Source: Candidatus Uhrbacteria bacterium (GTDB lineage Bacteria; Patescibacteriota; Patescibacteriia; UBA9934). Taken from it: 64,000 nt of DNA. Below the pieces are notes generated by a model. It saw nothing but the letters and a program-made list of their open reading frames with translations. It had not been told where the DNA came from and searched no databases. The first letter of the stretch is position 1. Every line of letters starts with the position of its first letter. The DNA is taken from contig CAIKHN010000019.1 in NCBI GenBank assembly GCA_903827265.1, forward strand, positions 11,814 to 75,813. The letters run 5' to 3'. The translations under genes were made by a program, and so were the position numbers. Of the stretch, positions 16,189 to 62,751 are shown piece after piece.

Positions 16189-16517
16189 AACGCACCTCAC
16201 ATGTGGAGTCGCATTGATCCTGATTGATCGCCACGCCCCTGACTGCTGGAGATCGCAATCAGGAACCGACGAGCGCTGTGACGACTCGGAGAAAAAGCTG
16301 TCCCCACGATGCTTTTCTCCGAGTCGCGGAAGACCCAACCATTTCGCCGGTGCGAAAGCCCACGTGAAGGCACATCGCAGATCGCACGAAATCGATACGT
16401 CGTTCCCTAGAAATTCTCTTGTGCCGACGGCCGTCGGCAGTCACAGAACCGTTCTGCATCTATCGTGCCAAGATTTTGCGTACACCTCAAACGATTTTTC
16501 GCACAAACATCACAAAA

Positions 16518-23500: not shown

Positions 23501-26500
23501 CGGAACACGATGCGCCAAAGGCTTCGTCACAGCTTCCAGCAACAAAGGCTAAACGGTAATCCGAACCCGTATCCGCATCAGGATCAGAGATATCTTTCTG
23601 CGTTAACTGATCAACCGGCAATTCACCAGGAATTGCGTAGCCAGAATACTCCTCGCCATACCAGCTCACGTCGCGCTGTGCGTAAGTGTCAACGTCGAGC
23701 ACTGTTGCGGCACCATCCGTTTTCCATGCAGAACAGAACGACGCATTACCTGCCGTGGAATATTGCGTACACAAACCAATATCGCCACAAATGGTCTTGT
23801 AACTATTGGTGCGCTCATCCCATGTTGTTTGCGCATCGGAACAACTCAACCACTCGCTACACTCGCGATCGCGGTTCACCTTCAAAACAATGTTTGCGTC
23901 ATTAGATAATCGCGTACCGGTTTCACATGTTCCATTCACCGTTTCTCCGGATTCGCTCGTGAGTGGACGACAATCAGAATCGTCATAACACGAACCGTCT
24001 TCAATGGTGGACGACGAGCTTCCGTTGATGTCGTAGTACGCCGATGCATCGTACGTACAACGATTTGCACACAAATCGACGCTCGCACCAGTTGTGGAGG
24101 TGATTGTTGATGTATCGCTACAGTCGATGGGATCAGCAAATCCATTTGGTGCGCCGCCGAACAACACGTCGGCATGTTTACTTGCGACGTATGACGCGCT
24201 CATGTTTGCCGTTTTCGATGGCTCTGCGCTGTCGTTAAACAATCCGCAACCTTCTTTCTGGCTTACTTGGCCGTTGCACTTCTGGCTATCTGGCAAGCTG
24301 TTGTCTTCCAATGAATCATTGTTCAAATAGAAGTAGCTTGTGCCATCGGCGCTGCCATACAAATCTTTCTGTGTAAGGTCGGTCAAATCCTGGAACTCAG
24401 AGCAGCTGTCGTACTTCGCTAAACACGTTCCAACCCAATTGCTGTAATCTGCATCACCGTTCTTCCAAATTCCCGATGTATCGCCACCAATGACGTATTG
24501 AGGCTCGCCCGTCGTTGGATCCGTCGCGCACAGCTCAGCTGGATTCGTTCCTGTCTTGAACCATCCACTGTATTTCACGTTATCAACCGTGACATCAGTG
24601 CGGTACTCACATGTCTGATTCTGCGGATCCTTAAAGTAATGCACAGTGTTCGTTTTATCCGTCCACGCATTACAGAACAATTCTTTTTCTGAACACAATG
24701 TTGTTGCGTAATCTGCTGGCGTGTTCATGAGGTACGTGCTCGTCCAGCTCTCTACCGCGGTGTGATCCTGGCTAAACACCGGCAAACCAACTTCCATACA
24801 GCCCGCAACGTCAGACGAACACTCGACGTCAGAATTCACCACCAAGAACACGTCTTTGTCTGCTGGTGACACCACGGTCGACGCTGCATACGAAAGATGT
24901 GGAGAAAGCGATCCGGTTGCTGTAAATGCCGTTGGAGGAACATACCAATCAAGATTGAAGTCGCAGCTTGAAGATCCAACGCCAATCGTACAAAGGAACT
25001 GACTGCTCGTGTCATATGCTGTTCCGGCGCTATTCAATGCGTAGTAACACGACGTCGCTTCTGTTGCGACAGAACCGTCGATCGTTCCACAATTTCCGCC
25101 ATACACCGACGCTGTTGTTGCATCGGATTCTTGCGTAAGGAAGTATGCAGAACAGCCAACCTGGGATTCTTCACACAACGAACTAAAGCTCTTCTCGTTT
25201 GATGCATCGCCGTTTTGATCTGTGTACTCCTGACATCCCAACATGTACTGCGGCGATGAAATTCCCTCGGCAGTTTCGTCACATGATGCTGGAGTTACCC
25301 ACGAATCCTTAATGACGTCGATATTATCCTCACCCTCACGCAAGACGACGTTATCAATAAAGAATTCGTCAGCTGTCGATCCTGGCGTAAAGACGAGTGC
25401 AGAAGCGCCGTTCCCGAAACTTGGGTAGTCCGTACTATTCATGTCGAGCGGACCGTAAGAATACTCGTTCCAATCGGTATCAAGTTCGATCGCTGTCTTG
25501 AAGAATGATGCATCAATTGCACCGGATCCACTTAAGGACGTATCGAATCCAACCATGAGGGTTCCGGTTCCCTTTGCCCAGAACGACACGGTATATGTTT
25601 TCCCTGCGAACAACTCTTGGCTCAATGTTCCGCATGTCTGTTCGCCATTTGCAACGGTACATGTTCCGCCGAGTGTTCCAGGTCCAACCGCGCAGCCACC
25701 GTCGGTTGTACATGTCGCTGCATTGTCGCCAACGTACGTCCAAACAGATTCTCCAGCCGACGACAGCGAGTGACCGTCGGTTGCAATAGATTCGTTCGAG
25801 AGCGTCACGTCGGTTGCGCTAGCGGCGTCCCAGTTGGTCAAATCACCATCCTCAAAGTATTCCGTCATTGCCTGACGGCTGTTACGACTTCGGCCGCCAG
25901 TGTATTCACGGCATCCCGACTGTTTTTCAGAACATGTCGTGCTTTCGTCAGCATAACCGTAATAGCGACATTCTGCAGTTGCAGTGTCGAAATATCCGCC
26001 AGAACTTTCACAATTCGATTGTTGCGTTGTGGTATCTGCGCCAGTAACGCTTGTTTTGCGGTACGTCACACACGAATCGCTCACCGTTACCGTCTGCGAC
26101 CAGAATCGGTAATGAATGACGCCGTTCGCATCATAAAACTCACGGCAGTCTGGATTTTTAATGGTGTCGTCATGTTCATCACAACTTGCACTGTCGGTAT
26201 CGAGATTTCCATCACCGTTTGAATCATCGTCACACGTGATTCCTGTTGCTGTTGCATTCCAATTTGTACATGGCGCAGAACCTGGAGCGCTATCAGTTCC
26301 AAGACTTCCTGCATACGGATCCATCGTAACAAGATCCGATTCCACCAAATTCCATGTCTTCAACTGGTAGCCATCGGTATCCGATCCTTCCCATGTGTAA
26401 AACACCGCAGCGTCATCAGACGTTGTCGAGTTTTCTGCAGCTTGATCGGTCGTTAAACATGCACGCAAATTGGTGAAGTACGACGTTGCCTCTGAGGCGA

Positions 26501-29366
26501 TATTCGTAAATTCATCACAACCCACGGCCTGAGCCGGACATGTGTCGGCAGTATCTGGAATAAAATACACTGGGAAATCACCTTCCGGTTCGTAGCGTGT
26601 CGGCTCCTGCTTAAAGGTGTCGTATCCAACACATTCCGACGGACACGAATCAAGGCTGTCGGTAATGCCAGCAATGGAAGGATCGCCGTTTGTTGGCGTG
26701 TACAACGAACATCCGACGTTCTTTTCCGAACACACGGTTGCGTAATTCCCACATTCTGCAGGATCTGTTGCGCTATCGCCGGTGCATCCCAAATACGTTG
26801 GAGCAACCTTCACATACGCCAAGTCGAGCGTGCTGCTGCTGTAGCCTTCGTGATAACTCGATGCCGACGACTCCTGTTCGAGCTGCATGTCGTCATACCA
26901 CAATGCGTTGCCCATGACGCCAACAGTTGCAGTGATTTCGGCAGTGCGATCGGTCAACGTTGGAACGGTAAATGTACAGGAGAATCGCTCGTAATCAGTA
27001 TCGACCGGCGTACTTGTAAGGAAATCAAGCTCATTCTTGTTTGCGTACAACGCACAGTCACCATCAAGCGCAAACCCCGTGAAGTCGACGGTTTCTCCGG
27101 TGCTTGCATCGAGCGCAATCCATGCATTCGTAGAAATACCGCTCGTTGCTTGCGCGGCATAAAATGAAAGCGTGTACTCCGCGCCTTGAGTAAGAACAAT
27201 TCCCTCTTGCGAGTAACTACTCGTACCACCTGGTTTCACCGCGTCAGATCCATCGAGCATCGCCGTTCCGTCGGTACTATATGTTCCGCTTGATCCGGAA
27301 GAAATCCAGCCGTCTGGAACACCATCACTATCAACGTCTTTCTCAAATGACGGATTCGCAATCATGTTCAACGTCGTGCCATCGGTGCGGGAAACGAGTT
27401 CTTTACATCCGGCGTCCGTCGACTCACAGTCCGCAACTTCCGCTGTGAAATAGATTCGGTTCTTATAGATGTCGTTTGCAGACTCTGCAGCCGCGAGCTT
27501 TGCCGATGTTGTGTAGTCTGGGAATGCGAATGTACCAGTGCCGTCGTCGACTTTCTGCGTGTCATACCACAAACATCCTGTCGAATCCGCAGTACAATTA
27601 TCAGAATTCGTGGTATTCGAAAGGAAGTTTGCACTCTTGCCGTTTGGATCTTCGTAGCTGGTGCACGATGCGTAGTAATCCGGACACGACTCTCCACGGA
27701 AACGCCAGACGTTTTCCTCGCGAACACAATATCCATAACCACCAGTACAATTTCCGTCGCTGTCTTCGTCGATACAGCTTGGCATGTCAACACAAACATC
27801 CTGACGTTCATCGGTTACAGATGCAACCAATTGCTCGCCATACACCTGTGCCTTGCATTGCGTTTCTGGATATTTCAGCACCCAATCTGGATCAATCAAA
27901 TGGCACCATGGGTGACTATCGTCCAACTCGCCCTGATCGTTACATGTGGTAAATGCGTTCACCACTTCGCCGAGTGTCACTGGGCTATTTTCTGTGTTTG
28001 CCGTTGACTCTGCAGCCAATTCCCAACCGGTTGAAATAATACGAGCCTTCCGAAGCTTCACGAGGTTGCCATGACAGTATCCATAGCTGTAACAGAATGG
28101 ATCCTGATCACGGGCAGTATCCGACGACGGGATAAGTGGCCACGAACTCTTCAAAAGCCCTTGCTCGATTGCATCGGCGATCGTAAGGGCAGAACCAGAA
28201 TCAGCTCGAGACACCGCAGTAACTAACGACGAATCCGCCACACAGTTGTACAACGATTTTCCTGACGACGGACATGCGCTAAATTCCTGCAGCTGGCTAT
28301 AATTCTCCACGGAAAGCGGAGTAGCAGTTAAGAAACTACGGAACGACTGTCGAGCATCCTCAGCGTTACTGCTTGCAACGCTATCAGCACTAAATGGATT
28401 AATCGACGACTGGTCAAGTCCACCAAACAATCCGTCGTACACTTTTTCGGTAATTTTGGAGAGAAGCGTGTTCGTGAACACCGAACCTGCGTGCTTCGCG
28501 ATCTGCAACAATACTTCTTTGTCGCCAAGAGCCTGAACCGCGATTTGATTTCGAATGCTATCAGATGCAGACATTGTCGCGTCGAGTCGCTTCTGAATGA
28601 TTTCTGCAGGCGTTTCTACTTTTCCGGTAATGAAATCCGTTTGCGGCTTAAAGAAACCTGAAAACATTTCACGAAGCGTGCTGTTCGCTGCATCAGTTTG
28701 CGCCTTGTTCAGCACATCGCTGTACAACTGAATTCCAACGGAAAGATCGTTCGACTTTGGGTTGTATGCCTCAGCGAGTTTTGTAATGACTAACGAATTT
28801 TTTCCAAATGGATCCGTCGCCATTGATGCAACGTCACTCAAAAATCCGCCCCAGTTATCCTGAACCGCATTCCATTCACACGCTGGCTTTGGACGATGAA
28901 ACGCGCTTTGAATGCCGAATTTAAACGCGAGCGTGACGCCTGAGGCGTTTGGTTCACACAAGCTGAAGTTTCCCAAAATTCCCGTGTCATCAATTGCGCC
29001 AAGTGCTTCGCCGGCGACCGATGCACCGTAGTCAGAAAAATACTCTTCCGCAGAACGGTTATCGAACAACGGATCTCCGCCGTTTCCACCAGAAGCAATG
29101 AAAACTGCGGCATCGTATGCCAAACGATCGGTTGCGTACGTCACGGTGTTAATCAGCGCTGTGGAAACGGAAGCAACGAGTGCGGTTTGCCCAAGATACT
29201 TTAAGGCGCTCAAAATCCACTCAGTGATACGAGGCGCGTCAGCGTCAGTACTCACCGGAATAACCGCGTATGCTGTTTTTGGCGCAAAAATGGCGGCCGA
29301 CGAAAATGTGAATATCGCAAGCCCAAGAAGGAGCGTCGCACCAAATTTTCGGAAGCGGTCCGTCAT
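20556..29366 (-). CDS. Giant secreted protein (2936 aa), rich in Cys, Asp, Thr, Ser and Gly. Contains a recurring C-x-E-x3-G-C-x2-[YW]-T module
   Basis: Signal peptide MTDRFRKFGATLLLGLAIFTFSSAAIFAPKTAYA. Repeated motifs CSEKNVGCSLYT, CSEKQSGCREYT, CSEKELFCNAWT, CEESQVGCSAYF and LGCQEYTD, spaced about 150-250 aa apart. Single uninterrupted ORF. Confidence 0.8.
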   Translation of the reverse strand: MTDRFRKFGATLLLGLAIFTFSSAAIFAPKTAYAVIPVSTDADAPRITEWILSALKYLGQTALVASVSTALINTVTYATDRLAYDAAVFIASGGNGGDPLFDNRSAEEYFSDYGASVAGEALGAIDDTGILGNFSLCEPNASGVTLAFKFGIQSAFHRPKPACEWNAVQDNWGGFLSDVASMATDPFGKNSLVITKLAEAYNPKSNDLSVGIQLYSDVLNKAQTDAANSTLREMFSGFFKPQTDFITGKVETPAEIIQKRLDATMSASDSIRNQIAVQALGDKEVLLQIAKHAGSVFTNTLLSKITEKVYDGLFGGLDQSSINPFSADSVASSNAEDARQSFRSFLTATPLSVENYSQLQEFSACPSSGKSLYNCVADSSLVTAVSRADSGSALTIADAIEQGLLKSSWPLIPSSDTARDQDPFCYSYGYCHGNLVKLRKARIISTGWELAAESTANTENSPVTLGEVVNAFTTCNDQGELDDSHPWCHLIDPDWVLKYPETQCKAQVYGEQLVASVTDERQDVCVDMPSCIDEDSDGNCTGGYGYCVREENVWRFRGESCPDYYASCTSYEDPNGKSANFLSNTTNSDNCTADSTGCLWYDTQKVDDGTGTFAFPDYTTSAKLAAAESANDIYKNRIYFTAEVADCESTDAGCKELVSRTDGTTLNMIANPSFEKDVDSDGVPDGWISSGSSGTYSTDGTAMLDGSDAVKPGGTSSYSQEGIVLTQGAEYTLSFYAAQATSGISTNAWIALDASTGETVDFTGFALDGDCALYANKNELDFLTSTPVDTDYERFSCTFTVPTLTDRTAEITATVGVMGNALWYDDMQLEQESSASSYHEGYSSSTLDLAYVKVAPTYLGCTGDSATDPAECGNYATVCSEKNVGCSLYTPTNGDPSIAGITDSLDSCPSECVGYDTFKQEPTRYEPEGDFPVYFIPDTADTCPAQAVGCDEFTNIASEATSYFTNLRACLTTDQAAENSTTSDDAAVFYTWEGSDTDGYQLKTWNLVESDLVTMDPYAGSLGTDSAPGSAPCTNWNATATGITCDDDSNGDGNLDTDSASCDEHDDTIKNPDCREFYDANGVIHYRFWSQTVTVSDSCVTYRKTSVTGADTTTQQSNCESSGGYFDTATAECRYYGYADESTTCSEKQSGCREYTGGRSRNSRQAMTEYFEDGDLTNWDAASATDVTLSNESIATDGHSLSSAGESVWTYVGDNAATCTTDGGCAVGPGTLGGTCTVANGEQTCGTLSQELFAGKTYTVSFWAKGTGTLMVGFDTSLSGSGAIDASFFKTAIELDTDWNEYSYGPLDMNSTDYPSFGNGASALVFTPGSTADEFFIDNVVLREGEDNIDVIKDSWVTPASCDETAEGISSPQYMLGCQEYTDQNGDASNEKSFSSLCEESQVGCSAYFLTQESDATTASVYGGNCGTIDGSVATEATSCYYALNSAGTAYDTSSQFLCTIGVGSSSCDFNLDWYVPPTAFTATGSLSPHLSYAASTVVSPADKDVFLVVNSDVECSSDVAGCMEVGLPVFSQDHTAVESWTSTYLMNTPADYATTLCSEKELFCNAWTDKTNTVHYFKDPQNQTCEYRTDVTVDNVKYSGWFKTGTNPAELCATDPTTGEPQYVIGGDTSGIWKNGDADYSNWVGTCLAKYDSCSEFQDLTDLTQKDLYGSADGTSYFYLNNDSLEDNSLPDSQKCNGQVSQKEGCGLFNDSAEPSKTANMSASYVASKHADVLFGGAPNGFADPIDCSDTSTITSTTGASVDLCANRCTYDASAYYDINGSSSSTIEDGSCYDDSDCRPLTSESGETVNGTCETGTRLSNDANIVLKVNRDRECSEWLSCSDAQTTWDERTNSYKTICGDIGLCTQYSTAGNASFCSAWKTDGAATVLDVDTYAQRDVSWYGEEYSGYAIPGELPVDQLTQKDISDPDADTGSDYRLAFVAGSCDEAFGASCSVGYCENTGSPCASTASCGSEGGSCLIGSCYTVSTTVCTSSADCGSTESCLGGVCAKQGSDGVIEDYSQYDKNAACSSGETFYPSVNFKSGTCLRDECVLTPQGSTFDVGDSEAKSCRGYPEINSPFPNVVVTDWMSAADRTSSDESLGAIPTAYRTGFDNAKTCLAGEDCDCSYTKATYGSKVLYVGTDGSFQPSFTSLIDLCVGGENDGEFCTSDSDTDADATLGYVHSEAHCEAGGGTCTKVSKIDEVLGMDGYCLEHDSSTNILGDRKENACITWLPVDQLAGSTDLYGKYTSAGYFAETEYCASVAPFADLNPTSAEHGTDFTFAGGAKMLCAEANAIDIPSDQWCTGSVSCPPGYFSVQGPRSEGSAAYDNTYSATCNNGADADCPYVCVPVGAIDDAGYCDGGVEPVGIAKDYHIDTYADAGGWKFDRYLIKDPSDFTTYADNVQDCTVKGRQLGDGTTSLRTFGSNWNDYTVAASEDATYGSLNSNANIFIGCAETAVVMADTNDNGAAPYTDRLLNKTNYESTDAPFAAQVGAGFENFAYNPDSPRAPFGRTISTETLERPPVVASCYTTESDYLGTTGLNYYVFSAPNLDVSSTTHDSSCASGSADDNNGADFTNPESRAFTDFALGISRYADGNNGTTTGGTVGFVSGTASWTDIATGAADSGSGWSGIVKDFFARADYGRLYSDGVYNASTGGYEYAETDSTGTPQNDAFGVAGFTKTVDTTWDERIANGKAPSVWAVDMNNCYNDECEEDQSHSLTLNDQNDGDVTGDSFYRAYLKFYAAADKNQLPLRRIIVDWGDGADVTGSVTTDNFYKNHRGLQDGKEVSICDTATTDSTYEWGMNADSCDANYFSYNHIYTCNPSKVTTACADTDSDGIYDNAPCTTNPGVSCTYRPRVHIRDNWGFCTGTCDATDSSYNADGTSSCFDNDGKFDDDPKTSDECNYKEYPNSDSADKLATDPWVYYDGVITVTP

Positions 29367-43664: not shown

Positions 43665-44357
43665 ATGGCAAATATGAAATTTGGGCTTATTGGACGAATC
43701 ACCACTATCCTTGCCGGCATCGTCGTTGTGGTGGCCGGAATGGCGTGGATTGGAAATGCACAGGACCACGCAAACGATCCCCAGACGCTCAGCATTCCAG
43801 TAAACGATAGTGACTGGTACGTCGGCAACAAAGACGCAGCTGTCACGCTCGTCGAATACAGCGATTTTCAATGCCCAGCATGCGGGGCATATTTCCCTGT
43901 CATGAAAGGACTCGAAGAAGCGTACGGCGACACGCTGAAGATTGTGTACCGCAACTATCCGCTGATAACGCTTCATGCGAATGCACAAATCGCGGCGCAG
44001 GCTGCCGAAGCCGCGGGAATTCAGGGAAAGTTTTTTGAAATGCACGACGCACTGTTCCAAAATCAGAAATCCTGGAGCGCTGAAACAGATCCAACAAACT
44101 CGTTCTTAAACTACGCAACCGTTATTGGTCTTGACGTTGAGAAATTCCGAACCGACCTCACGAGCAACGCGGTCATTAACGAAATCAAAAACGACATTAA
44201 CGGTGGAAACGCATCAAAACTTAGCGGAACGCCAACGTTCTTCTTGAACGGTGTGCAAATCGTGAAAAATCCTCAAGGTCTCGAACCATTCAAGACACTC
44301 ATCGATGCAGCGCTCCTTCCAGCGCCAACGGAGACTTCCGCTGAAACTGCAGAGTAA
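43665..44357 (+). CDS. DsbA-family thiol:disulfide oxidoreductase (membrane-anchored, CPAC active site)
   Basis: N-terminal TM anchor. VEYSDFQCPACGAYFP thioredoxin-fold motif. Confidence 0.75.
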   Translation: MANMKFGLIGRITTILAGIVVVVAGMAWIGNAQDHANDPQTLSIPVNDSDWYVGNKDAAVTLVEYSDFQCPACGAYFPVMKGLEEAYGDTLKIVYRNYPLITLHANAQIAAQAAEAAGIQGKFFEMHDALFQNQKSWSAETDPTNSFLNYATVIGLDVEKFRTDLTSNAVINEIKNDINGGNASKLSGTPTFFLNGVQIVKNPQGLEPFKTLIDAALLPAPTETSAETAE

Positions 44358-44359
44358 TT

Positions 44360-44815
44360 ATGTCCACTTCCCGCTGGTATCCATTCACGATTCTTGGCGT
44401 GAGCATCGTCGGATTTTTCGACGCTGCGTACTTAACTATCCAACATTACACTCAGTTCACCCTTCCCTGCAGCATTACCCACGGATGTGATTTAGTAACG
44501 AAAAGCGAGTACTCGCAAATCATGGGCGTTCCCGTCGCCCTTCTTGGCGCGCTCTACTACCTCGCAATCTTCCTCGTCGTGTACATCATCATCGAGACGA
44601 AAAAAACGGACTATCTCCGTTTCATCGCCATCACCACAACCGCCGGATTCCTCTTCTCCGCTTGGTTCGTCTACCTCCAACTCTTCGTCATCCACGCCAT
44701 CTGCCAATACTGCATGTTCTCCGCATTCACCTCAACTACAATGTTTGCCGCGTCGATTGTGTATTTTTCAAAGGAGCATCTTCGGAACGTTAAAATTTCC
44801 TTCCCTTCCCCGTAA
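44360..44815 (+). CDS. Vitamin K epoxide reductase (VKOR)-family membrane protein, probable DsbA re-oxidant
   Basis: 4-TM protein with a loop Cys pair (LPCSITHGC) and a CQYC motif. Begins 3 nt after the dsbA-like stop. Confidence 0.7.
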   Translation: MSTSRWYPFTILGVSIVGFFDAAYLTIQHYTQFTLPCSITHGCDLVTKSEYSQIMGVPVALLGALYYLAIFLVVYIIIETKKTDYLRFIAITTTAGFLFSAWFVYLQLFVIHAICQYCMFSAFTSTTMFAASIVYFSKEHLRNVKISFPSP

Positions 44816-47643: not shown

Positions 47644-49121
47644 TTATGGAAGAAGTTTCACAAAGAATCGCTTGCCTTTCTGAACAATCACCTCGTCCGT
47701 GCGAGGAGAAACGTTCAGCATCGGATCGTTAACGACTTCGGACCCGATCTTTACGCCGGCCTGTTCGATGAGACGCTTTGCCTCGCCTTTCGACGGTGCA
47801 AATTCAGCCTCGACGAGAATTTCAACAATCGTGAGTGTTCGACCGCCCAGTGAAAGTTCTGGAATAACATCCGGCATTTCTTTGTTGCTGAACACTTGTA
47901 AGAAATGCTTCTTCGCCGCTTTTGCTTTGCTCTTGTTGTGGTACATCTCAACAACGGTTTCGGCCAAATGCATCTTTGCATCACGTGGATTCATACCACC
48001 AGCAATTGCAGATTCAACGGCAGCGATTTCATCATCTTCAAGATCGGTCGCAAGTTTAAAGTATGGAGCGATCATGCTGTCGTCCATTGCCATAATTTTA
48101 CCGAACATGTCTTCTGGCGAATCTGTTAGCGCGATGACTCCCCCTTCGCTCTTACTCATCTTCTTTCCTTCACTGTTCGTAAGAAGTGAAATTGCGAGTA
48201 CAAACTTCTCTTTCTGTTTCATCTCTCGCATTAACGTTCGGCCCGCAAGCATGTTGAACGTTTGATCATTCCCACCAACCTCCAAGTCCACATCCATCGC
48301 AACGGAATCGTAGCCCTGCATGAGTGGGTACATGAATTCGTGGAGGTAAATTGGCTTCGAAGGTCTCATGTAGCGCCCGTACTTTGTGAACAAGAAACTA
48401 GGCGCCTCTTTCGGATCTTCTTCTCTCAACTTTTTAAGCGCCTCCTGGTCTTCCTTAGAGAGGAATGCTTTGCCACATTTTGGATCCCACATTTCAGTAA
48501 TACCCGTACTAACCTCCGGCACCGAAACTCCCAAGTCTGCGAGCTTCGGATTGGAGCGAATTGTCTTGTTCATTATCTTTGCGTTGGATGCGAAAACGTT
48601 TCCACAATGTGGACATTCAATCTCTCCCATAAATCTGCGATCAAACATATCCCGCTCTAACATTTGTTGAACGGTGAAATGACTCGCTAACTGCATGACA
48701 TCTCCAAAGTTCATTTTTCCAAGCCACTTGTCGTTGAACATCACCTTTGCGGCGTTGTCGCCAGAAAACTTCAGAATCTTCGACGCTTGTTTTTTGTACG
48801 TCGCTGCATTCGCGAGTACCTCTTGCTTTGTGAGCTGCTTTCGCGTCGCAAGTTTGTCCGTCGGGTCACCGATCATTGCGGTGAACGATCCGATCAACAT
48901 GATCACCTCGTGACCAAGATCTTGGAATTCACGAAGCTTTCTCAGCTGCATTGCGTGACCAATATGCAAGAACGGTGCTGTTGGATCGATACCGTTGTAC
49001 AGCCGCAATCGCTTGCCGCTCATCAAAAGTTCGCGCAACTTTTCCGTGGTTGGATACACGGTGGCGACACCACGGGTGAGCAATCGATTAATTTTGTGTT
49101 CATCGGTAATGACGTTCATAG
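47644..49121 (-). CDS. tyrS: Tyrosyl-tRNA synthetase with C-terminal S4 domain. Has an extra segment of about 90 aa between HIGH and KMSKS
   Basis: HIGHAMQ and KKMSKS motifs. S4-like C-terminus. I placed the start at the internal ATG (MNVITDEHK) just after the stop of the upstream VOC gene; the track's start at 49182 overlaps that gene. Confidence 0.8.
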
Positions 49122-49123
49122 AA

Positions 49124-49495
49124 TTACGCGTGATCTTCATCGAGAATAAGTTGGTTGCCATCTGCATCAGCAATAATGGCATTCCATCCGCCCCATATTT
49201 GTTGGATAGGTTCTACAAGAATTGTTACGCCAGCGCGACGCAACTCGTTGACTGCGGCGCGAATATCGTCAACCGCGAGCACGATTCCTGTTGGACCGCC
49301 GATGTGAACGTTCTCAAAACCTTTTGCCCGGCTAGGATTCTTTTCCTCAACGTACAGTCGCCCGCCGGGCAACGTATATTCAGTGAAGTGTGGGTTCTCT
49401 TCAACGAGCTCAAGCTTAAGAATGTCTCGATAAAAAGCTTTCGACGCTTCTACGTCTGAGACAAAGATGAGATGAGCACCGAGGGAAAACTTCAT
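49124..49495 (-). CDS. Glyoxalase/bleomycin-resistance (VOC) family protein
   Basis: 123 aa, with a beta-alpha-beta-beta-beta pattern (AHLIFVSDVEASKAFY...VHIGGPTGIVLAVDDI). Confidence 0.6.
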   Translation of the reverse strand: MKFSLGAHLIFVSDVEASKAFYRDILKLELVEENPHFTEYTLPGGRLYVEEKNPSRAKGFENVHIGGPTGIVLAVDDIRAAVNELRRAGVTILVEPIQQIWGGWNAIIADADGNQLILDEDHA

Positions 49496-49504
49496 ATATC
49501 GGCA

Positions 49505-52201
49505 TTATGACACAAGTGCTGCGTGCTCTTTTTGGAGCGCAGCAAGTTTTTCTTGAAGATCGGCGAGCTTCTGACGTTCCCCGGCAATGACCTTCTCCGG
49601 CGCACGAGCTACAAAATCCGTATTCGCAAGTTTTGATTCTTGGGCTGCGATGAATTTTGTCGCTTCGGCGATCTCGGATTCGATTCGGATCTTTTCCGAA
49701 GCAGCGTCGACGGCTGGCAATTGTACGAAGATCTGCGCTGCGCCAACCACAATCGGCGTAATCGACTCCGGTCGCTCCATGCTTGATCGGACAATCTTCA
49801 CTTTCGTGAGGCCGCCGATAACCGACTCCATTTCCGCCAAAGCACCAGCATTGACGATCGTAATCGACTCAACATCCTTCGGTAACGTCTTATGTTCCGA
49901 GAGATAATTACGAATCGCAATTACCGCCGAGCACACCTGATCGAATGCCGCTCGATCCTCCGACGACAATTCGTGCTCAACCGTTGGCCACTTTGCAACA
50001 ATAATCATTCCGGAGTCGAAGTTCTTATAGATTTCCTCGGTAACGAATGGTGCAAATGGGTGCCAAAGGATAAGCAAACGTTCGAGAATGTAGAGAAGAA
50101 TATCGCTCTTCTCGCCTTCGATTTTGGCGATTTCGAGGTACCAGTCCGCGAAGTCGTTCCACGTAAAGTCACGCAACACTTCGATGGCGAGCGAGAAGTC
50201 GTAACGATCGATGAGTAAACTAACCTTCTTTGCTGTCTCACTAAACCGCGCAAGGATCCATTTGTCGGCAAGCGTCTTCGGCTCCACCTCCCCCCGACCC
50301 CCTCCTTCGTAAGGAGGGGGAGTCTTCGCGGAAAGAATAAATCGCGAGATATTCCACAGCTTGTTCACAAGGTTACGCGATGCTTCAACTTTCTCAATGT
50401 AATATCGCGAATCGTTTCCTGGAGTGTTTCCGGAAAGCAACGAAACGCGCAATGCATCGCAACCGTATTCTTCGATAACTTCAATAGGATCAATTCCATT
50501 ACCAGAAGACTTTGAGAACTTCTTTCCGTCCTTATCACGAAGAATACCGTGAATGTATGCGTCCTTAAATGGAATCTGGTTCAGCGCATACGTGCTCATG
50601 AGAATCATGCGCATCAACCACAAATACAAAATTTCATATCCCATCTGAATCCAGTTCGTTGGATGAAACTGTTCAAGATCGGAAGGCTTGCCGTCCGTAG
50701 CCTTGGCGAAGGACGGCCAACCGAGCGTCGAGAATGTCCACGATCCGCTCGAGAACCACGTATCGAGCGTGTCTTCATCTTGAACCCAGCCTTCGCCTTC
50801 TGGTTTTGCGCCGACAAAGATCTCCACCCCCTCCAACTCCCCCTCGGAAAGGGGGAGAGATTTAGTCTTCCGATACCACGCAGGAATACGATGACCCCAC
50901 CAGAGCTGGCGCGAAAGGCACCAGTCGCGGAGATTTTCGATGCGATCGAGATAGAGTTTCGTGAATCGATCTGGCGTAATCGAAACTTTTTGTTCGGATT
51001 TCCCATCGAGTCCAGTGGTAACCGCCTCACGCATCAAATCACGCAGCGTTTTGCCGCGACCAGGAATTTCTTTGTTCACGTTCAACCACCACTGCGTCAT
51101 CGGAATTGCCTCAATAACGTCGCCATACCGATCAGATGTACCAACGTTCTGAATAACCTTTTCTTCTTTTTCGAGAAGTCCTTGTTCCTTCAGCCACGAA
51201 ACAACTCTTTCGCGCGCAGCCTCAATGGTCATGCCGGCGACAGATCCTGCGTCGGCGGTCATCTTCCCGTCTGCGCCGATCACTTGCTTGATTTCGATAG
51301 GATCATTTTTCGCCTTCTGCACTTCGTACATTCCGAAATCGATCGCACTGTGTGCCGGAGTAACGCCGAGCGCGCCGGTTCCAAATGACGGATCAACTGC
51401 ATCGCTCGCGATCACTTTGATTGAAAGCTTTGCGCTGGCGAATTCAACATCGTATGTTTTTCCAACGAATGTTTTGTATCGATCATCAGTTGGATGCACT
51501 GCAACAGCCGTATCGCCAACCTTTGTTTCTGGACGTGTCGTGGAAATCGTGATCGGAAAATCTTTGCTGTATTTAAACGTGTACAGCATCGACTCGCGTT
51601 CGATAGTTTCGATCTCGTCATCAGAACACGTGGACTGGCCTTTCACCGACCAATTCACCACGCGGAAACCACGATAGATGAGTCCATCGTTGTACATGCG
51701 TGTGAAAAGTTCGTTCACCGCAGCGCTCCGTTTGTCGTCGAACGTGTATGCCAAACGGCTCCAGTCTGCACTGGTTCCTAATTTCTTTACCTGTGTAAGA
51801 ATCGTCGATTTTGAGCTTTCAGCAAACTCGCGAATTTTCTCAAGCAACCCTTCGCGGCCAAGCTCTTGCCGGGGATTCTTCATTCCACCAGCCATGAGAT
51901 TTTTCTCAACACGAGCCTGTGTGGCGATTGCGGCGTGGTCGGTTCCCGGCACAAGAAGCACCTTCTTTCCCAATAAACGCTGATAGCGAACCATCGCGTC
52001 CATGAGGGAGTTTTCAAGCGCATGGCCAAGGTGAAGCACGCCCGTCACGTTTGGCGGAGGCATCACCACAGTGAACGCTTCGGTGGAATCAGTAATGTTT
52101 GGCAAACCCTCTGGCGCAAAATAGCCTGAGCTTAGCCAAGATTCATAAATTCCATCCTCCACGAGCTTCGCCTCGTACGCCTTTGCCATTTCGTTTGCCA
52201 T
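49505..52201 (-). CDS. valS: Valyl-tRNA synthetase
   Basis: MANEMAKAYEAKLVEDGIYESW...PPPNVTGVLHLGHA class I motif. The anticodon-binding region (FTWNDFADWYLE) and the coiled-coil C-terminus are present. ATG verified at 52201. The first 374 aa of the track's ORF (to 53323) are antisense read-through of the GC-rich cassette. Confidence 0.9.
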   Translation of the reverse strand: MANEMAKAYEAKLVEDGIYESWLSSGYFAPEGLPNITDSTEAFTVVMPPPNVTGVLHLGHALENSLMDAMVRYQRLLGKKVLLVPGTDHAAIATQARVEKNLMAGGMKNPRQELGREGLLEKIREFAESSKSTILTQVKKLGTSADWSRLAYTFDDKRSAAVNELFTRMYNDGLIYRGFRVVNWSVKGQSTCSDDEIETIERESMLYTFKYSKDFPITISTTRPETKVGDTAVAVHPTDDRYKTFVGKTYDVEFASAKLSIKVIASDAVDPSFGTGALGVTPAHSAIDFGMYEVQKAKNDPIEIKQVIGADGKMTADAGSVAGMTIEAARERVVSWLKEQGLLEKEEKVIQNVGTSDRYGDVIEAIPMTQWWLNVNKEIPGRGKTLRDLMREAVTTGLDGKSEQKVSITPDRFTKLYLDRIENLRDWCLSRQLWWGHRIPAWYRKTKSLPLSEGELEGVEIFVGAKPEGEGWVQDEDTLDTWFSSGSWTFSTLGWPSFAKATDGKPSDLEQFHPTNWIQMGYEILYLWLMRMILMSTYALNQIPFKDAYIHGILRDKDGKKFSKSSGNGIDPIEVIEEYGCDALRVSLLSGNTPGNDSRYYIEKVEASRNLVNKLWNISRFILSAKTPPPYEGGGRGEVEPKTLADKWILARFSETAKKVSLLIDRYDFSLAIEVLRDFTWNDFADWYLEIAKIEGEKSDILLYILERLLILWHPFAPFVTEEIYKNFDSGMIIVAKWPTVEHELSSEDRAAFDQVCSAVIAIRNYLSEHKTLPKDVESITIVNAGALAEMESVIGGLTKVKIVRSSMERPESITPIVVGAAQIFVQLPAVDAASEKIRIESEIAEATKFIAAQESKLANTDFVARAPEKVIAGERQKLADLQEKLAALQKEHAALVS
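50279..50330. repeat. GC-rich palindromic repeat element, copy 3 (inside valS, in frame; encodes ...KTPPPYEGGGRGEVEP...)
   Basis: GGCTCCACCTCCCCCCGACCCCCTCCTT-CGTA-AGGAGGGGGAGTCTTC. Shares the GGCTCCA start and the CCCCCT...GGGGGAG hairpin with copies 1 and 2. Confidence 0.65.
50811..50870. repeat. GC-rich palindromic repeat element, copy 2 (inside valS, in frame; encodes ...KSLPLSEGELEGVEI...)
   Basis: TCTCCACCCCCTCCAACTCCCCCTCGGAAAGGGGGAGAG. About 88 percent identical over about 42 bp to the reverse complement of copy 1. Confidence 0.7.
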
Positions 52202-52267
52202 AGATAGGACAGAGTGTAGACGAAAGACGGATTTTATGGTAGGTTTTTCTCCGTTCTCGGAGCTTCT

Positions 52268-52606
52268 GTGCCTTCCAACAATCGTCCTGCCCAGCCTATC
52301 GTGAGCGCCGCCGAAGGCGCGCACAGCCGTCTGTCCGCGATCCTCAAAACCCAAAAAGGAGAAGACGCAAGACGACTGCGTCGCGCGATCAATAGCATTC
52401 TCAACATGATCGACCGGTTCGCCGCCGGCGACATTACCAAGCGTCAGGAGATACCTCCCAGTGTCCAACGCAACCCCACGACGGATATCGAACGGAAAGT
52501 GATGGCGTTCTGGAGGGCAACGGACCTTCTGCAGGACCGAATGTTCGATGGGCGTTCCCCGGTCTCCGAGGAAACCATCATCGCTACCTTCCATGCGATC
52601 TCCTGA
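52268..52606 (+). CDS. Small hypothetical protein, paralog A (short form) of a 3-member tandem family. GC-rich
   Basis: GTG-start ORF. Its C-terminal half aligns to paralog C (EIP..R..T....RKV......LL..R.....S..T...I.AF). Confidence 0.5.
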   Translation: MPSNNRPAQPIVSAAEGAHSRLSAILKTQKGEDARRLRRAINSILNMIDRFAAGDITKRQEIPPSVQRNPTTDIERKVMAFWRATDLLQDRMFDGRSPVSEETIIATFHAIS

Positions 52607-52620
52607 TCGCACCACATCAC

Positions 52621-52669
52621 CAACGCACGCCACGGCCCGCTCTTCGAGAGTCGGGCCGTGGATTGTTTT
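52621..52669 (+). terminator. 49-bp repeat unit containing a 13-bp-stem hairpin plus T-tract (intrinsic terminator), copy 1
   Basis: CAACGCACGCCACGGCCCGCTCTTCGAGAGTCGGGCCGTGGATTGTTTT. Identical copy at 53311..53359. Confidence 0.7.
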
Positions 52670-52738
52670 CTGAAAATATTGAAAAAAATGACGTTCTCGG
52701 CTAATCTTTGGCGGGACAACTTTCCCCCGAGGTTCATC

Positions 52739-53287
52739 GTGAAACTGCCTACTACCGCAATCCTCAGCAAATACATGGATGCCGTCCGCCGCATCCAGAA
52801 GATGATCGACGCCTGCAAGGGCGCGCACGCCGACGCATGGCTCAAAGCGATGATCGCCATCAACGAGACGTATGGCAGCATGACGGGAATTCCGTACCGC
52901 GTGATCGACTCCAAAATGCTTTGCTTGGGCGTCGGCAGGCAGGTCTGGCGTCTCTACCACGCCGTGCAACTCCTCGCGGAGTATCGGTTCACGCCAGACA
53001 CTGACGTGACGGAAGAGGACGTGATAAAGGCGTTCGACAAGGTTGCCAGCAACGCGCGTGGCAACGACACCATCTTCACGTGCGACAACGTGTCCCCGGC
53101 AGCACAGCGCGCAATGCTCAACACGCCCTTCTTCAACGACGGGCTGCCCGGATGGATCGTCGAAGGAGTCGGGACCGAATCGCCTACCATGTTCGTAATC
53201 ACCGGAAGCTTCGGCGTGACCGCGGAGCATCTCCCGGAGAACGTCCAGTTCAATCCGGAGCTGAAGATCTGGGACGTCGTTCGCTGA
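52739..53287 (+). CDS. Small hypothetical protein, paralog B. GC-rich
   Basis: About 35 percent identical to paralog C over the shared core (IPY...G.GR.V..L..A.QLLAE.R.....T.E.DVI.AFD). I placed the start at the GTG at 52739, which has GAGG 7 nt upstream. The track's start at 52658 lies inside the terminator repeat. Confidence 0.5.
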   Translation: MKLPTTAILSKYMDAVRRIQKMIDACKGAHADAWLKAMIAINETYGSMTGIPYRVIDSKMLCLGVGRQVWRLYHAVQLLAEYRFTPDTDVTEEDVIKAFDKVASNARGNDTIFTCDNVSPAAQRAMLNTPFFNDGLPGWIVEGVGTESPTMFVITGSFGVTAEHLPENVQFNPELKIWDVVR

Positions 53288-53310
53288 CAAGGCGTCGGCA
53301 CACAGCAACA

Positions 53311-53359
53311 CAACGCACGCCACGGCCCGCTCTTCGAGAGTCGGGCCGTGGATTGTTTT
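53311..53359 (+). terminator. 49-bp terminator-containing repeat, copy 2
   Basis: Identical to 52621..52669. Confidence 0.7.
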
Positions 53360-58081: not shown

Positions 58082-58158
58082 TGGTAGGCTCACCTGGACT
58101 CGAACCAGGGACCACCGAGGTATAAGCTCGGCGCTCTAACCAACTGAGCTATGAGCCC
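58082..58158 (-). tRNA. tRNA-Ile with anticodon TAT (UAU), which would decode AUA
   Basis: GGGCTCATAGCTCAGTTGGTTAGAGCGCCGAGCTTATACCTCGGTGGTCCCTGGTTCGAGTCCAGGTGAGCCTACCA. The body resembles bacterial tRNA-Ile. Anticodon loop CTTATAC. Confidence 0.75.
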
Positions 58159-59924: not shown

Positions 59925-60266
59925 ATGACCGACGCTATCGAAACCACCGACATCATGCCAACCGTCGAAACTGGCATGTTGATCCGTATTCATGAGAAAA
60001 TCCAAGACGTGAATGCAAAGGGCGAGCCACGCGAGCGCATCCAGATCTTTGAAGGTTTGGTAACTGGTACCCGCGGTGCCGGAGCATCAAAGTCGTTCGT
60101 TGTCCGCAAGGAAAGCAACGGATTCGGCGTTGAGAAGATTTTTCCAACCACATCGCCGGTTATCACCAAAATCGAAGTTGTGAAGCGCTACAAGGTCCGC
60201 AAGCGCAAGTTGAACTTCATGAAAGACTTCGGCCGCAAGTTGCGCGAACTCGTCGTCAAGAAATAA
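59925..60266 (+). CDS. rplS: 50S ribosomal protein L19
   Basis: RIQIFEGLVTGTRGAGASKSFVVRKESNGFGVEKIFPTTSPVITKIEVVKRYKVRKRKL. Confidence 0.9.
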   Translation: MTDAIETTDIMPTVETGMLIRIHEKIQDVNAKGEPRERIQIFEGLVTGTRGAGASKSFVVRKESNGFGVEKIFPTTSPVITKIEVVKRYKVRKRKLNFMKDFGRKLRELVVKK

Positions 60267-60285: not shown

Positions 60286-60312
60286 GCCTCCGATTGTCGG
60301 AGGTGTTTTTGT
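60286..60312 (+). terminator. Intrinsic terminator after rplS
   Basis: GCCTCCGA-ttg-TCGGAGG followed by TGTTTTTGT. Confidence 0.7.
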
Positions 60313-60326
60313 ATAATGAACGCATG

Positions 60327-61703
60327 TTATATCGCCGGTTCGCAACCGAACTCCGCGCTCTTATACTCACATCGAACCGGAGCGTCAGGATCAGAAGTCA
60401 GCACATCACTCCCAATTGAACATTTATCTTGATTACAGATCTCCTCGAGCAATGTCGCAGCTTTTTCGGACATGATCGACGCTGTTGTTCCACTATATCC
60501 AAATTGCAAATCATCGTACACATCACAACCAACCATCGTATCGCTTCCATCACGTGACTCTGCGGCCTTTGTTCGAAGACCGCTACAATTGAATCCTTGG
60601 TAGTCACTGGAAAGTGATCCGAGCCCAGTTCCTGCAGTGATACAACTCTGGATTGTCGCATCATATTCACAATACGTCTGATGCTCGCCGTTTGATCCTC
60701 CATCAAATTCCTGCATTGCACCACAGACAGAATCGGATGCGAGCGAACTCGGAATATCAAAGCACGATGTACACATTTTCTCGCCCTTTACCGACACACA
60801 CGATCGACCGTCATCACAGTATGTGTAATTACACACATCGCCGTCTTTCCACGATCCAAGAACGCCATCCTTGAGGTGGCCCGAATCCGTAATCGTTGCG
60901 GTCCCGCCACATACTGTTGTTCCTGGAGGGTTATTTGTTGTAACCCCGTACCCCGCTTCGTCATGAAGCGCTTCGCATGACGACGCAGCGTCAAGAAGCG
61001 TCACTTCGCGGATCATTGGAACTTTTAGCGCGTTAAACACCGTAAGACGTGGATCGATCAAATTGAGAATAACGAAGATACTCAAAAGGATGACGACACC
61101 GGTAATTGCGTTCGTAATGCGCGTTTTTGCCTTTTCGATGTATTTGCTCTTTCCACGCGAGAGGACGTATTGCAAACCGCCAAGCATCATCATGACCACC
61201 GCAATTAATGCTGCCGCTGGAAGAAGCCAGGTATAAACAATATTAATGTACGTTGGAAGATTTTCAATTTCCGTAATGCTTCCAATAGGAACATTCAGCG
61301 TATACGGCGCTTCGTCGGCATAACAATATTTCTGCTCTTTCAGACCTGTCTTCGTTTTTGTGCAGTCGTACGGCATCCCCACAGAGGTATCCCATGTTGC
61401 GTGAATCGTTGAACCGTGGCTATTTCCCGTCCATGCCTTACATTGCTCTTCAGTCCAACACTTCGGATTTTCCGTTGGATAAAACTGCTGATCCGTGAAG
61501 CATCCAACAAATTGCGTATTCGTGTCAGCACACGTTTGCTGACATTGCTCCCTACTCATTGCGTCTGCGTCTACCGAACCGCTTCCCTGCGATCCGCAAA
61601 AGCATTCGCACGTCGACGTCGACGCAAACGACACCTTTGGAGAAAAGGTGAAGAGCGCCACCAAGGCGACGAACACACAAAGACTACGTTTTACGCATTG
61701 CAT
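60327..61703 (-). CDS. Secreted/membrane Cys-rich protein. Signal peptide, then an extracytoplasmic Cys-rich domain of about 120 aa, a central TM hairpin, and a C-terminal Cys-rich domain of about 230 aa
   Basis: MQCVKRSLCVFVALVALFTFSPKVSFA signal peptide. More than 30 Cys. TM pair YINIVYTWLLPAAALIAVVMMMLGGLQYVL / ITGVVILLSIFVILNLI. Confidence 0.65.
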   Translation of the reverse strand: MQCVKRSLCVFVALVALFTFSPKVSFASTSTCECFCGSQGSGSVDADAMSREQCQQTCADTNTQFVGCFTDQQFYPTENPKCWTEEQCKAWTGNSHGSTIHATWDTSVGMPYDCTKTKTGLKEQKYCYADEAPYTLNVPIGSITEIENLPTYINIVYTWLLPAAALIAVVMMMLGGLQYVLSRGKSKYIEKAKTRITNAITGVVILLSIFVILNLIDPRLTVFNALKVPMIREVTLLDAASSCEALHDEAGYGVTTNNPPGTTVCGGTATITDSGHLKDGVLGSWKDGDVCNYTYCDDGRSCVSVKGEKMCTSCFDIPSSLASDSVCGAMQEFDGGSNGEHQTYCEYDATIQSCITAGTGLGSLSSDYQGFNCSGLRTKAAESRDGSDTMVGCDVYDDLQFGYSGTTASIMSEKAATLLEEICNQDKCSIGSDVLTSDPDAPVRCEYKSAEFGCEPAI

Positions 61704-62475
61704 CGAGAATTTGGGTAAAGATCGTAAATGGAACAGATCCCTCAACTTTTTCTCCGTTAAAGAAGAACGTTGGCGTTCCAACCACACCAGCGGTTACACC
61801 GTCGGAACCGTCGGCAGCAACGTCATTCGCATAATACCCGCCATCAAGGCATCGACCGAACGCTTTCATATCGAGCCCGATTGACTCAGCAACAGCGTTC
61901 ACTGTTTCAACTCCAAGGACGTCATTCGTTGCGAACACTGCATCATGATACTCCCAAAACTTCCCTTGTTCGGCGGCGCAACCCCCAGCCTCGGCAGCGA
62001 TCGTCGCACCAGGATGCAAGTCTTCTAATGGAAAATTTCGGAAAATCACACGAACGTCATCGTGATATTGCTGAGCAATAGCGCGAACAATTGGTGCAAC
62101 TTCTTTAGAGTATGGACATCCGAAGTCAGCAAACTCTACGAGAGTGATTTTTGCACCTTTTGTCCCCAGGGACGGATCACTTGCGCCAATCAATGCTGCA
62201 GCGTCTGTATTCGTTGCTGCTTTTGTTGCAAATGCAGCAACCTTCCGCGTAAAGCTCGTGGTGGTGTATGCAAGCGCCGGATTAATGCTCCCACTACGGA
62301 TGTCCCGATAAAATCCAAACACCCGCCAAGAAAATGCCAGAACGACGCCGATCGCCAAAACAAAACCAACAAACCCAAGAATACGACTCGCCGACCACCA
62401 AGAATGCCTTGGAGGCTCTGGCGGCACCGGAAGCATGCTGATTTCTTCAGTCTCCTCCATATATGCACGAATCAT
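61684..62475 (-). CDS. Membrane-anchored thioredoxin-fold (DsbA-like) protein with a CPYS active-site variant
   Basis: TM anchor ILGFVGFVLAIGVVLAFSW. ITLVEFADFGCPYSKE...GTPTFFFNG thioredoxin fold. Its 3' end overlaps the start of the Cys-rich protein gene by about 20 nt. Confidence 0.65.
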   Translation of the reverse strand: MIRAYMEETEEISMLPVPPEPPRHSWWSASRILGFVGFVLAIGVVLAFSWRVFGFYRDIRSGSINPALAYTTTSFTRKVAAFATKAATNTDAAALIGASDPSLGTKGAKITLVEFADFGCPYSKEVAPIVRAIAQQYHDDVRVIFRNFPLEDLHPGATIAAEAGGCAAEQGKFWEYHDAVFATNDVLGVETVNAVAESIGLDMKAFGRCLDGGYYANDVAADGSDGVTAGVVGTPTFFFNGEKVEGSVPFTIFTQILDAMRKT

Positions 62476-62535
62476 AGCATAATTTCATGGATCGATCTTT
62501 ACGGACCATCCCCAATTTGGTATGCTTCACGCACT

Positions 62536-62751
62536 ATGATTCTCGATATTCTCCAGGTGGTTCTTGCCATTCTTTTAACAGGTGCAATTTTACTTCAGGC
62601 TCGCGGAACAAACGTCGGACTCGCATTTGGCGGAGACGGAAGCTTCTACCGCACACGCCGCGGCATTGAGAAAAAATTGCATATCGCCACCGTTGTTATC
62701 GCAATTCTCTTCTTTGCGACTGCATTAACAAACAGTCTTTTCACGTTCTAG
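62536..62751 (+). CDS. secG: Preprotein translocase subunit SecG
   Basis: 71 aa: MILDILQVVLAILLTGAILLQARGTNVGLAFGGDGSFYRTRRGIEKKLHIATVVIAILFFATALTNSLFTF (two TM helices with a Gly-rich loop). The upstream 155 aa of the track's ORF are an extension. Confidence 0.7.
   Translation: MILDILQVVLAILLTGAILLQARGTNVGLAFGGDGSFYRTRRGIEKKLHIATVVIAILFFATALTNSLFTF

Follow-up and report, generated by a model that had tools for sequence, protein, structure and literature searches.

Two overlapping genes on the minus strand of a 64,000-nucleotide (nt) stretch of Candidatus Uhrbacteria DNA (assembly GCA_903827265.1, contig CAIKHN010000019.1, positions 11,814 to 75,813; below called the window, whose own numbering is used throughout) encode a membrane-anchored DsbA-like protein with a CxxS active site and a putatively exported protein of 458 amino acids (aa), in which two cysteine-rich ectodomains flank a pilin-like hairpin. 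The CxxS protein may act as a monothiol disulfide isomerase or holdase with the hairpin protein and its 26 mature cysteines as principal client, a proposal that is about as likely as not. It is the best fit because the nucleophilic cysteine and the cis-proline loop are kept while the resolving cysteine is absent, and because the protein is membrane-tethered and probably made from the same mRNA as the 26-Cys exported protein. Folds, motifs, topology signals, Cys conservation and gene linkage are shown here, and from these it is inferred how the site reacts, which protein it serves and whether the cysteines are paired in disulfides.

The DsbA-family gene (61684-62475; longest open reading frame, ORF, 263 aa) and the hairpin gene (60327-61703; 458 aa from its ATG) overlap by 20 nt at 61684-61703 (...GATGCAATGCGTAAAACGTAG), where the stop codon of the first meets the ATG of the second. 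The longest version of the hairpin ORF begins at a GTG at 61787, but the ATG is preferred because the corresponding M1 is invariant in 39 orthologues and the same junction is found at orthologous loci. For the DsbA-like protein, M6 at 62460 is probably the true start, giving 258 aa, because most orthologues have this length and start at the equivalent methionine. The two genes probably form a bicistronic, translationally coupled chromosomal unit; a promoter and terminator consensus scan gave counts close to shuffle expectation, by which an internal promoter is neither supported nor excluded. A preliminary description of this DNA had already proposed an overlap of about 20 nt, a 458-aa protein with a signal peptide and two adjacent transmembrane helices, and a membrane-anchored thioredoxin-fold protein with an FGCPYS site, all of which is borne out here.

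The DsbA-like protein matches the Pfam families Thioredoxin_4 (1e-21) and DSBA (1e-18) with 78 and 68 bits, both above the cut-offs. Its AlphaFold2 model, with a predicted local distance difference test score (pLDDT) of 89.7, matches 3gyk in Foldseek with a TM-score of 0.87 and a root-mean-square deviation of 1.9 Å, and a sequence profile compared to the PDB also finds 3gyk (1e-27). The next Foldseek matches are ScsC, the C. diphtheriae DsbA/TsdA, alpha-DsbA1/2, BcfH, BdbD and MdbA. The thioredoxin fold with an inserted helical domain, characteristic of the DsbA family, is present, while the dithiol CxxC site is replaced by CPYS (within DFGCPYS), making it a member of the DsbA fold without being a canonical dithiol oxidase. 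An identity as TrbB or TraF was rejected based on the scores for TrbB TIGR02738 (12.5 bits vs a cut-off of 132), PRK13728 (11.4 vs 199) and Pfam TraF (16.1 vs 23).

Hydropathy indicates a single N-terminal membrane anchor at aa 32-50 (62326-62382), and the model has a long helix at aa 29-61 and another at aa 73-88, both N-terminal to the thioredoxin domain. Directly after the anchor, a juxtamembrane motif (FS)WRVFxFYRDIRSGxINP (aa 50-60; 62296-62328) is strongly conserved in the CxxS DsbA family and may form a helix at the membrane interface or a contact site for the hairpin. In an alignment of 58 sequences (38-75% identical to the window protein), C120, C166, C209 and T234-P235 are invariant and S123 is nearly so. 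C120 and S123 delimit the active site C120-P-Y-S123 (62107-62118), and T234-P235 (61771-61776) is the putative cis-proline loop of the thioredoxin fold, with G233, T234, P235 and T236 all invariant. The remaining two cysteines, C166 (61978-61980) and C209 (61849-61851), enclose a stretch of the helical insert (61849-61980) and presumably pair as a structural disulfide. Among the 58 family members, lysines and arginines are more numerous on the N-terminal than on the C-terminal flank of the anchor in 37, equally numerous in 16 and fewer in 5, suggesting that the N-terminus is likely inside the cell and the thioredoxin domain outside.

CxxS or CxxT is present in 106 of the 120 best matches listed, which are single-domain proteins of about 250 aa carrying DF[G/x]C-x-x-[S/T]. 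The few CxxC proteins among the matches listed have two domains and about 400-460 aa, and both of those with a named source are myxobacterial. In a scan of a genome collection, about 75 DsbA relatives outside the Patescibacteria all have CxxC, and CxxS/T is confined to Patescibacteria loci (L012, L013, L082). Judging by these alignments, CxxS is a conserved trait of a Patescibacteria DsbA clade and not a lesion, because CxxS/T is kept in 106 of the 120 best matches listed and S123 hardly varies among the 58 aligned sequences. A CxxC relative from Magasanikbacteria (L043) occupies the same genomic slot as the monothiol DsbA. This relative has the C166/C209 pair, which the CPAC paralogue in the window lacks, suggesting that a CxxC paralogue residing in this slot gave rise to the monothiol clade. 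As described before, the gene pair is separate from a canonical DsbA(CPAC)-VKOR pair, which is found at 43665-44815 on the plus strand (Pfam Thioredoxin_4, DSBA and VKOR; CPAC motif) and is the presumed source of oxidising equivalents. In a literature of which the coverage was incomplete, no paper was found that links Patescibacteria with DsbA or CxxS, and none that describes a DsbA clade with a naturally monothiol site or a connection of such a clade with Cys-rich hairpin proteins; given this coverage, these negatives do not show that no such paper exists.

The second gene encodes a protein with a signal peptide at aa 1-27 (61623-61703), with K and R in its n-region, a hydrophobic core and a predicted cleavage site between SFA and S. 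In the AlphaFold2 model, made with 39 orthologues (mean pLDDT 87.2), the pLDDT is low at aa 22-27 and is followed by a confident domain. This N-terminal ectodomain (aa 28-146; 61266-61622) consists mainly of beta strands, with a pLDDT mostly above 90 and 10 conserved cysteines. The central hairpin (aa 148-216; 61056-61262) matches the VirB2-like family PF18895, T4SS_pilin, with 38.5 bits vs a gathering score of 26.6, and has two long helices and a basic, presumably cytoplasmic loop SRGKSKYIEKAKTRITN. Based on hydropathy and the model, these adjacent hydrophobic helices lie at aa 149-181 and 186-216, with 31-33 residues each. The C-terminal ectodomain (aa 235-458; 60330-61001) is mixed alpha/beta, lineage-specific and carries 16 conserved cysteines. 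With a predicted template modelling score (pTM) of 0.58, the model leaves it uncertain how the domains are placed relative to each other.

Lysines and arginines number 0 before helix 1, 6 in the loop (SRGKSKYIEKAKTRI) and 2 after helix 2, and the loop holds 5.3 of them on average across the orthologues. Because of this charge pattern and the signal peptide, the loop is predicted to be cytoplasmic and both Cys-rich domains to be outside the cell, as in the preliminary description, and not in the cytoplasm. The protein thus has the structural features of a VirB2/TrbC-like pilin (signal peptide, two hydrophobic helices and a short basic loop), and it shares its phylum and its hairpin domain, matched above the Pfam threshold, with the VirB2/TrbC-like pilins of the Patescibacteria type IV secretion system (T4SS; Quinonero-Coronel et al., PMC12102498). 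Unlike the canonical PF18895 pilins, which are roughly 100 aa long and essentially just the hairpin, it has 458 aa, with ectodomains of ~120 aa and ~220 aa flanking the hairpin, and is encoded between secG and rplS. The NCBIfam pilin-like family Mbov_0395 matches it with a score under that family's cut-off, and the linkage typical of a T4SS pilin is lacking, with no T4SS family among the 32 window proteins scanned. According to PMC12102498, VirB2-like PF18895 pilins are widespread in the candidate phyla radiation (CPR) and frequently lie in arrays or close to virB4; for one cultivated epibiont, T4SS and pilin genes were reported to be essential. Among the structure clusters specific to freshwater, no domain is more abundant than PF18895 (10.1101/2025.04.23.650224). 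In neither of these two papers are PF18895 pilins described as fused to large ectodomains or as having a Dsb protein for a partner. At the cell surface, the hairpin protein may serve in host contact or as a structural component, either anchored in the membrane or part of a T4SS-type filament, in which, by analogy to the topology of VirB2/TraA pilins, both ectodomains would face outward.

Of the 28 cysteines of the hairpin protein, 2 belong to the signal peptide, aa 32-127 hold 10 and aa 243-454 hold 16; the previous count was too high, with more than 30 in total and more than 20 in the second domain. The cysteine density is 6.1% vs 0.67% in the other window genes. In 39 orthologues of 29-59% identity, each of the 26 mature cysteines (C32, 34, 36, 54, 58, 68, 82, 88, 114 and 127 in the N-terminal domain) is either invariant or conserved to at least 90%, and their number is even in each ectodomain. 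Most simply, they would form 5 + 8 = 13 disulfides. The ectodomains are without detectable known fold or outside homologues: Pfam finds nothing in the protein besides the hairpin domain, Foldseek gives no match at E<0.001 in the PDB or BFVD, and a sequence profile compared to the PDB gives no match for the ectodomains. A phmmer search with the C-terminal domain in 1.84 billion cluster representatives gave 11 matches, 9 of which have the identical architecture, while P0236 (a PKD-repeat protein) and P0238 (a tandem-repeat ORF) were judged repeat-driven artefacts. A homologue search with the N-terminal domain by itself, which scored a single candidate, retrieved no sequence and is of little informative value. 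Two other minus-strand genes of the window also encode Cys-rich proteins. A giant ORF of 2936 aa (20556-29366) has 120 cysteines (4.1%) with CBM_4_9 as sole Pfam match, and is probably another disulfide-rich surface protein; a 458-aa M23 peptidase (14962-16338) has 15 cysteines (3.3%) and no pilin hairpin that could be found by profile.

A homologue search retrieved about 60 full-length orthologues of the hairpin protein, all from Patescibacteria. Database names assign every close relative of the pair to Patescibacteria/CPR, and the relatives at greater distance include Uhrbacteria. About 50 further proteins of 370-530 aa match only aa ~141-234, i.e. the hairpin and its flanks, with 50-67% identity. 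These paralogues (P0063-P0114, on other Patescibacteria contigs) follow the same plan of N-ectodomain, VirB2-like hairpin and C-ectodomain, with a C39-like peptidase, NlpC/P60, M23 or M15_4 as C-terminal domain and 6-25 cysteines each. Some of the peptidase-bearing ones also share part of the N-terminal domain with the window protein, and one (P0069) shares a contig of 617,920 bp with close relatives of the window pair. Therefore, the topology of two outside domains around two membrane helices, previously called unusual, turns out to be a plan common to dozens of Patescibacteria paralogues, built on the T4SS_pilin hairpin. The hairpin and its putative cytoplasmic loop are almost invariant among the paralogues, which suggests that they share a partner or a route of assembly.

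Next to the conservation of the proteins, the gene order is conserved. Fourteen loci carrying a CxxS/T DsbA were inspected directly, and co-occurrence was judged from 12 contig look-ups together with the genome scan and matches of exact contig size. At 11 of the 14 loci the hairpin gene lies immediately downstream of the DsbA (the window, L001/2, L003/4, L005, L006/7, L011, L012, L013, L092, L093 and the P0195 locus). Six lineages (the window, L001, L003, L092, L093 and the P0195 locus) have an overlap of exactly 20 nt, and the sequence of this junction is conserved among them (...GATGCNATGCGTCAAACGTAG); there is a 29-nt overlap in L006, a 4-nt overlap in L011 and a 142-nt gap in L005. Of the hairpin orthologues, 24 of 62 have a longest contig identical in size to that of a listed CxxS DsbA, and in sister strains both genes are on the same contigs. 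The adjacency is thus shared by many relatives, often down to the identical overlap. In two loci the gene in the equivalent position encodes a different hairpin protein: in L013 (3253-4860) it has 535 aa and 48 cysteines in repeated short modules and follows a CPYS DsbA, and in L043 (5768-8326) it has 852 aa, 42 cysteines and a third hydrophobic segment and follows a CPFC DsbA that keeps C166/C209. In both, uvrA comes next. The ectodomains of these two hairpin proteins are quite different from those of the window protein, yet Cys-rich.

In the proposed mechanism, the hairpin protein would be exported by the Sec pathway, leaving the VirB2-like hairpin in the membrane, the basic loop in the cytoplasm and the two ectodomains displayed outside, where the DsbA(CPAC)-VKOR pair would introduce disulfides. 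The C120 thiolate might then attack mispaired disulfides of the nascent ectodomains, giving a transient mixed disulfide between C120 and the client, which would be resolved by a client thiol. The net effect would be isomerase and holdase activity with no need for a DsbD-type reductant, and translation beside the client would give the helper local and stoichiometric access. Because no intramolecular disulfide can form, a monothiol site would be neither an oxidase nor inactivated by oxidation, and it cannot be reoxidised by DsbB or VKOR. A DsbD-type pathway would not be needed because a monothiol enzyme is permanently 'reduced'; DsbC, in comparison, is kept reduced by DsbD. CxxS mutants of protein disulfide isomerase (PDI) and the natural yeast CxxS protein Eug1 catalyse isomerisation, and CxxS mutants of DsbA trap clients as mixed disulfides.

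Several known systems resemble parts of this arrangement. DsbA paralogues dedicated to pili or fimbriae (Salmonella BcfH and SrgA, Vibrio TcpG, F-plasmid TrbB, and MdbA and TsdA of Actinomyces/Corynebacterium) have a DsbA fold and either are encoded together with a surface-fibre protein that contains disulfides or are needed for it. The window protein has BcfH, TsdA, MdbA and ScsC among its best structural matches and is membrane-tethered in the manner of the Gram-positive MdbA and BdbD type. Unlike BcfH, SrgA, TcpG, TrbB, MdbA and TsdA, all of which are CxxC proteins capable of oxidation, the Uhrbacteria protein belongs to a clade in which Ser/Thr replaces the resolving cysteine throughout, and the protein that it putatively serves carries a VirB2-type hairpin together with 13 putative disulfides, whereas their clients are sortase or chaperone-usher pilins. 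The trimeric isomerases ScsC, Wolbachia alpha-DsbA2 and BcfH share with it the catalytic DsbA domain, CP[YF]x, the Thr-cisPro loop and an N-terminal helical segment. However, these are soluble periplasmic CxxC proteins that trimerise via the N-terminal helix, which in the window protein is the membrane anchor. With the monothiol PDI-family proteins ERp44, AGR2 and Eug1 of the endoplasmic reticulum (ER) it has in common a thioredoxin fold, CxxS and, probably, an oxidising compartment in which a CxxC oxidase is present as well; AGR2 acts by way of mixed disulfides on mucins, which are very rich in cysteine. In contrast to these, it is bacterial, has a membrane anchor and belongs to the DsbA-type branch with the helical insert, so that the likeness, drawn here from motif and probable compartment, would be one of mechanism and not of family.

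Five points weigh against the hairpin protein being the principal client of an external CxxS isomerase. A CxxS/T DsbA occurs without a downstream hairpin gene in L009 and L010 (same slot) and in L082 (different context), and conversely a hairpin orthologue with the full Cys set occurs without DsbA in L008 and at the P0061 locus. Since either gene can occur alone in the secG/rplS slot, the link is strong but not obligate. Thirdly, because the whole neighbourhood of the loci is syntenic (SBP_bac_5 and secG on one side of the slot, rplS or uvrA, cmk and rluD on the other), the adjacency is partly inheritance rather than selection. In addition, the 2936-aa protein and the M23 peptidase are equally possible clients. 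Finally, the anchor of the window protein itself has 2 K/R on its N-terminal and 3 on its C-terminal flank, which is ambiguous for the orientation. As to the earlier suggestion of a dedicated oxidoreductase or isomerase, the isomerase or chaperone part is chemically plausible and is retained, the oxidase part is dropped as CxxS makes no stand-alone oxidase, and 'dedicated' overstates the link since the genes also occur apart.

The first four of these points speak for the CxxS DsbA as a general monothiol isomerase or chaperone for all exported Cys-rich proteins, with the adjacent hairpin gene as inherited synteny. Also, among the matches listed there is no full-length hairpin orthologue on the 874-kb contig that carries P0173. 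This explanation is possible, though on the unlikely side, since the exact 20-nt overlap and its junction are kept in lineages with hairpin proteins only about 50-55% identical, and the pairing persists where the ectodomains have been replaced by other Cys-rich modules (L013, L043). A housekeeping CxxC DsbA with VKOR is, moreover, already present.

According to a second alternative, the CxxS protein would be an assembly or retention factor, which holds the hairpin protein covalently, like ERp44/AGR2, or non-covalently, like the F-plasmid TraF, until hand-over to a T4SS-type system or polymerisation. The VirB2-like nature of the hairpin fits this idea, as do the near-invariant hairpin and loop of the paralogues, suggesting a common machine or partner, the helix at aa 73-88 before the thioredoxin domain together with the oligomeric ScsC, BcfH and alpha-DsbA2 among the top structural matches, and a weak sub-threshold resemblance to TraF and TrbB. 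However, the TraF and TrbB scores (16 vs 23 and 12.5 vs 132 bits) are far under the cut-offs, TraF does not have the Cys that is invariant in the CxxS DsbA, each client domain has an even number of conserved cysteines with none obviously free for stable retention, and no T4SS genes were found in the 64-kb window, all of which makes such a factor improbable. An extension, put forward as speculation with little weight, is that the pair could be a bacterial counterpart of thiol-mediated quality control in the ER: the DsbA would keep the nascent hairpin protein bound at the membrane through a mixed disulfide until all 13 disulfides had reached the native state, after which the hairpin protein would be released via the hairpin into a T4SS-type filament displaying interchangeable ectodomains (the Cys-rich module here, peptidoglycan hydrolases in the paralogues) for host contact.

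A cytoplasmic thioredoxin domain, or a role unrelated to disulfides and to the downstream gene (thiol peroxidase, sulfenate handling), would agree with the ambiguous flank charges of the window protein and with the CxxS motifs of non-Dsb redox enzymes (PMC2757866), but is very hard to reconcile with the family-wide positive-inside bias towards N-in and C-out (37 of 58 vs 5), the extracytoplasmic location of all closest relatives by sequence and fold (DsbA, ScsC, BdbD, TsdA), the extra invariant Cys pair, which fits an oxidising compartment, and the tight coupling to a gene for an exported Cys-rich protein.

In the window, the pair is bracketed by a divergent secG (about 62530-62751, plus strand) and a convergent rplS (59925-60266, plus strand), and the orthologous loci of the hairpin gene carry the same housekeeping flanks. 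An inverted repeat CCTCCGACAATCGGAGG at 60287-60303, between the stop codons of the hairpin gene and rplS and followed by a T-run on the plus strand, is likely their shared terminator; it was not called by the promoter and terminator consensus scan. The surrounding genes are housekeeping genes as well, encoding valyl-, arginyl- and tyrosyl-tRNA synthetases (ValRS, ArgRS, TyrRS), GroEL, TopA, NusA, YidC, ParAB and RelA/SpoT. Among these, ValRS (49505-53323, minus strand; 1272 aa) has its catalytic domain from aa 392, following an N-terminal extension of about 390 aa without family match, and in TyrRS (47644-49182, minus strand; 512 aa) the catalytic domain is matched in two stretches, which suggests an insertion. 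ARAGORN identified a tRNA-Ile with anticodon UAU at 58082-58158 (minus strand), an uncommon bacterial way to read AUA. A further large ORF of 1465 aa (6179-10576, minus strand) has only 3 cysteines and no Pfam match.

Returning to the proposed monothiol isomerase and its hairpin client, a naturally monothiol DsbA clade, if true, would mean that a bacterium with a minimal genome can proofread disulfides without a reducing pathway of the DsbC/DsbD type. The hairpin proteins represent an undescribed class of large proteins with a VirB2-like hairpin, in which the ectodomains are of unknown fold or, in the paralogues, cell-wall hydrolases. The annotations 'pilin' and 'thioredoxin domain-containing protein' mask both this class and the monothiol clade. 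The large hairpin proteins are candidate host-contact factors of epibiotic Patescibacteria, and dispensing with a DsbD-type pathway would, if true, be an attractive economy for their minimal genomes.

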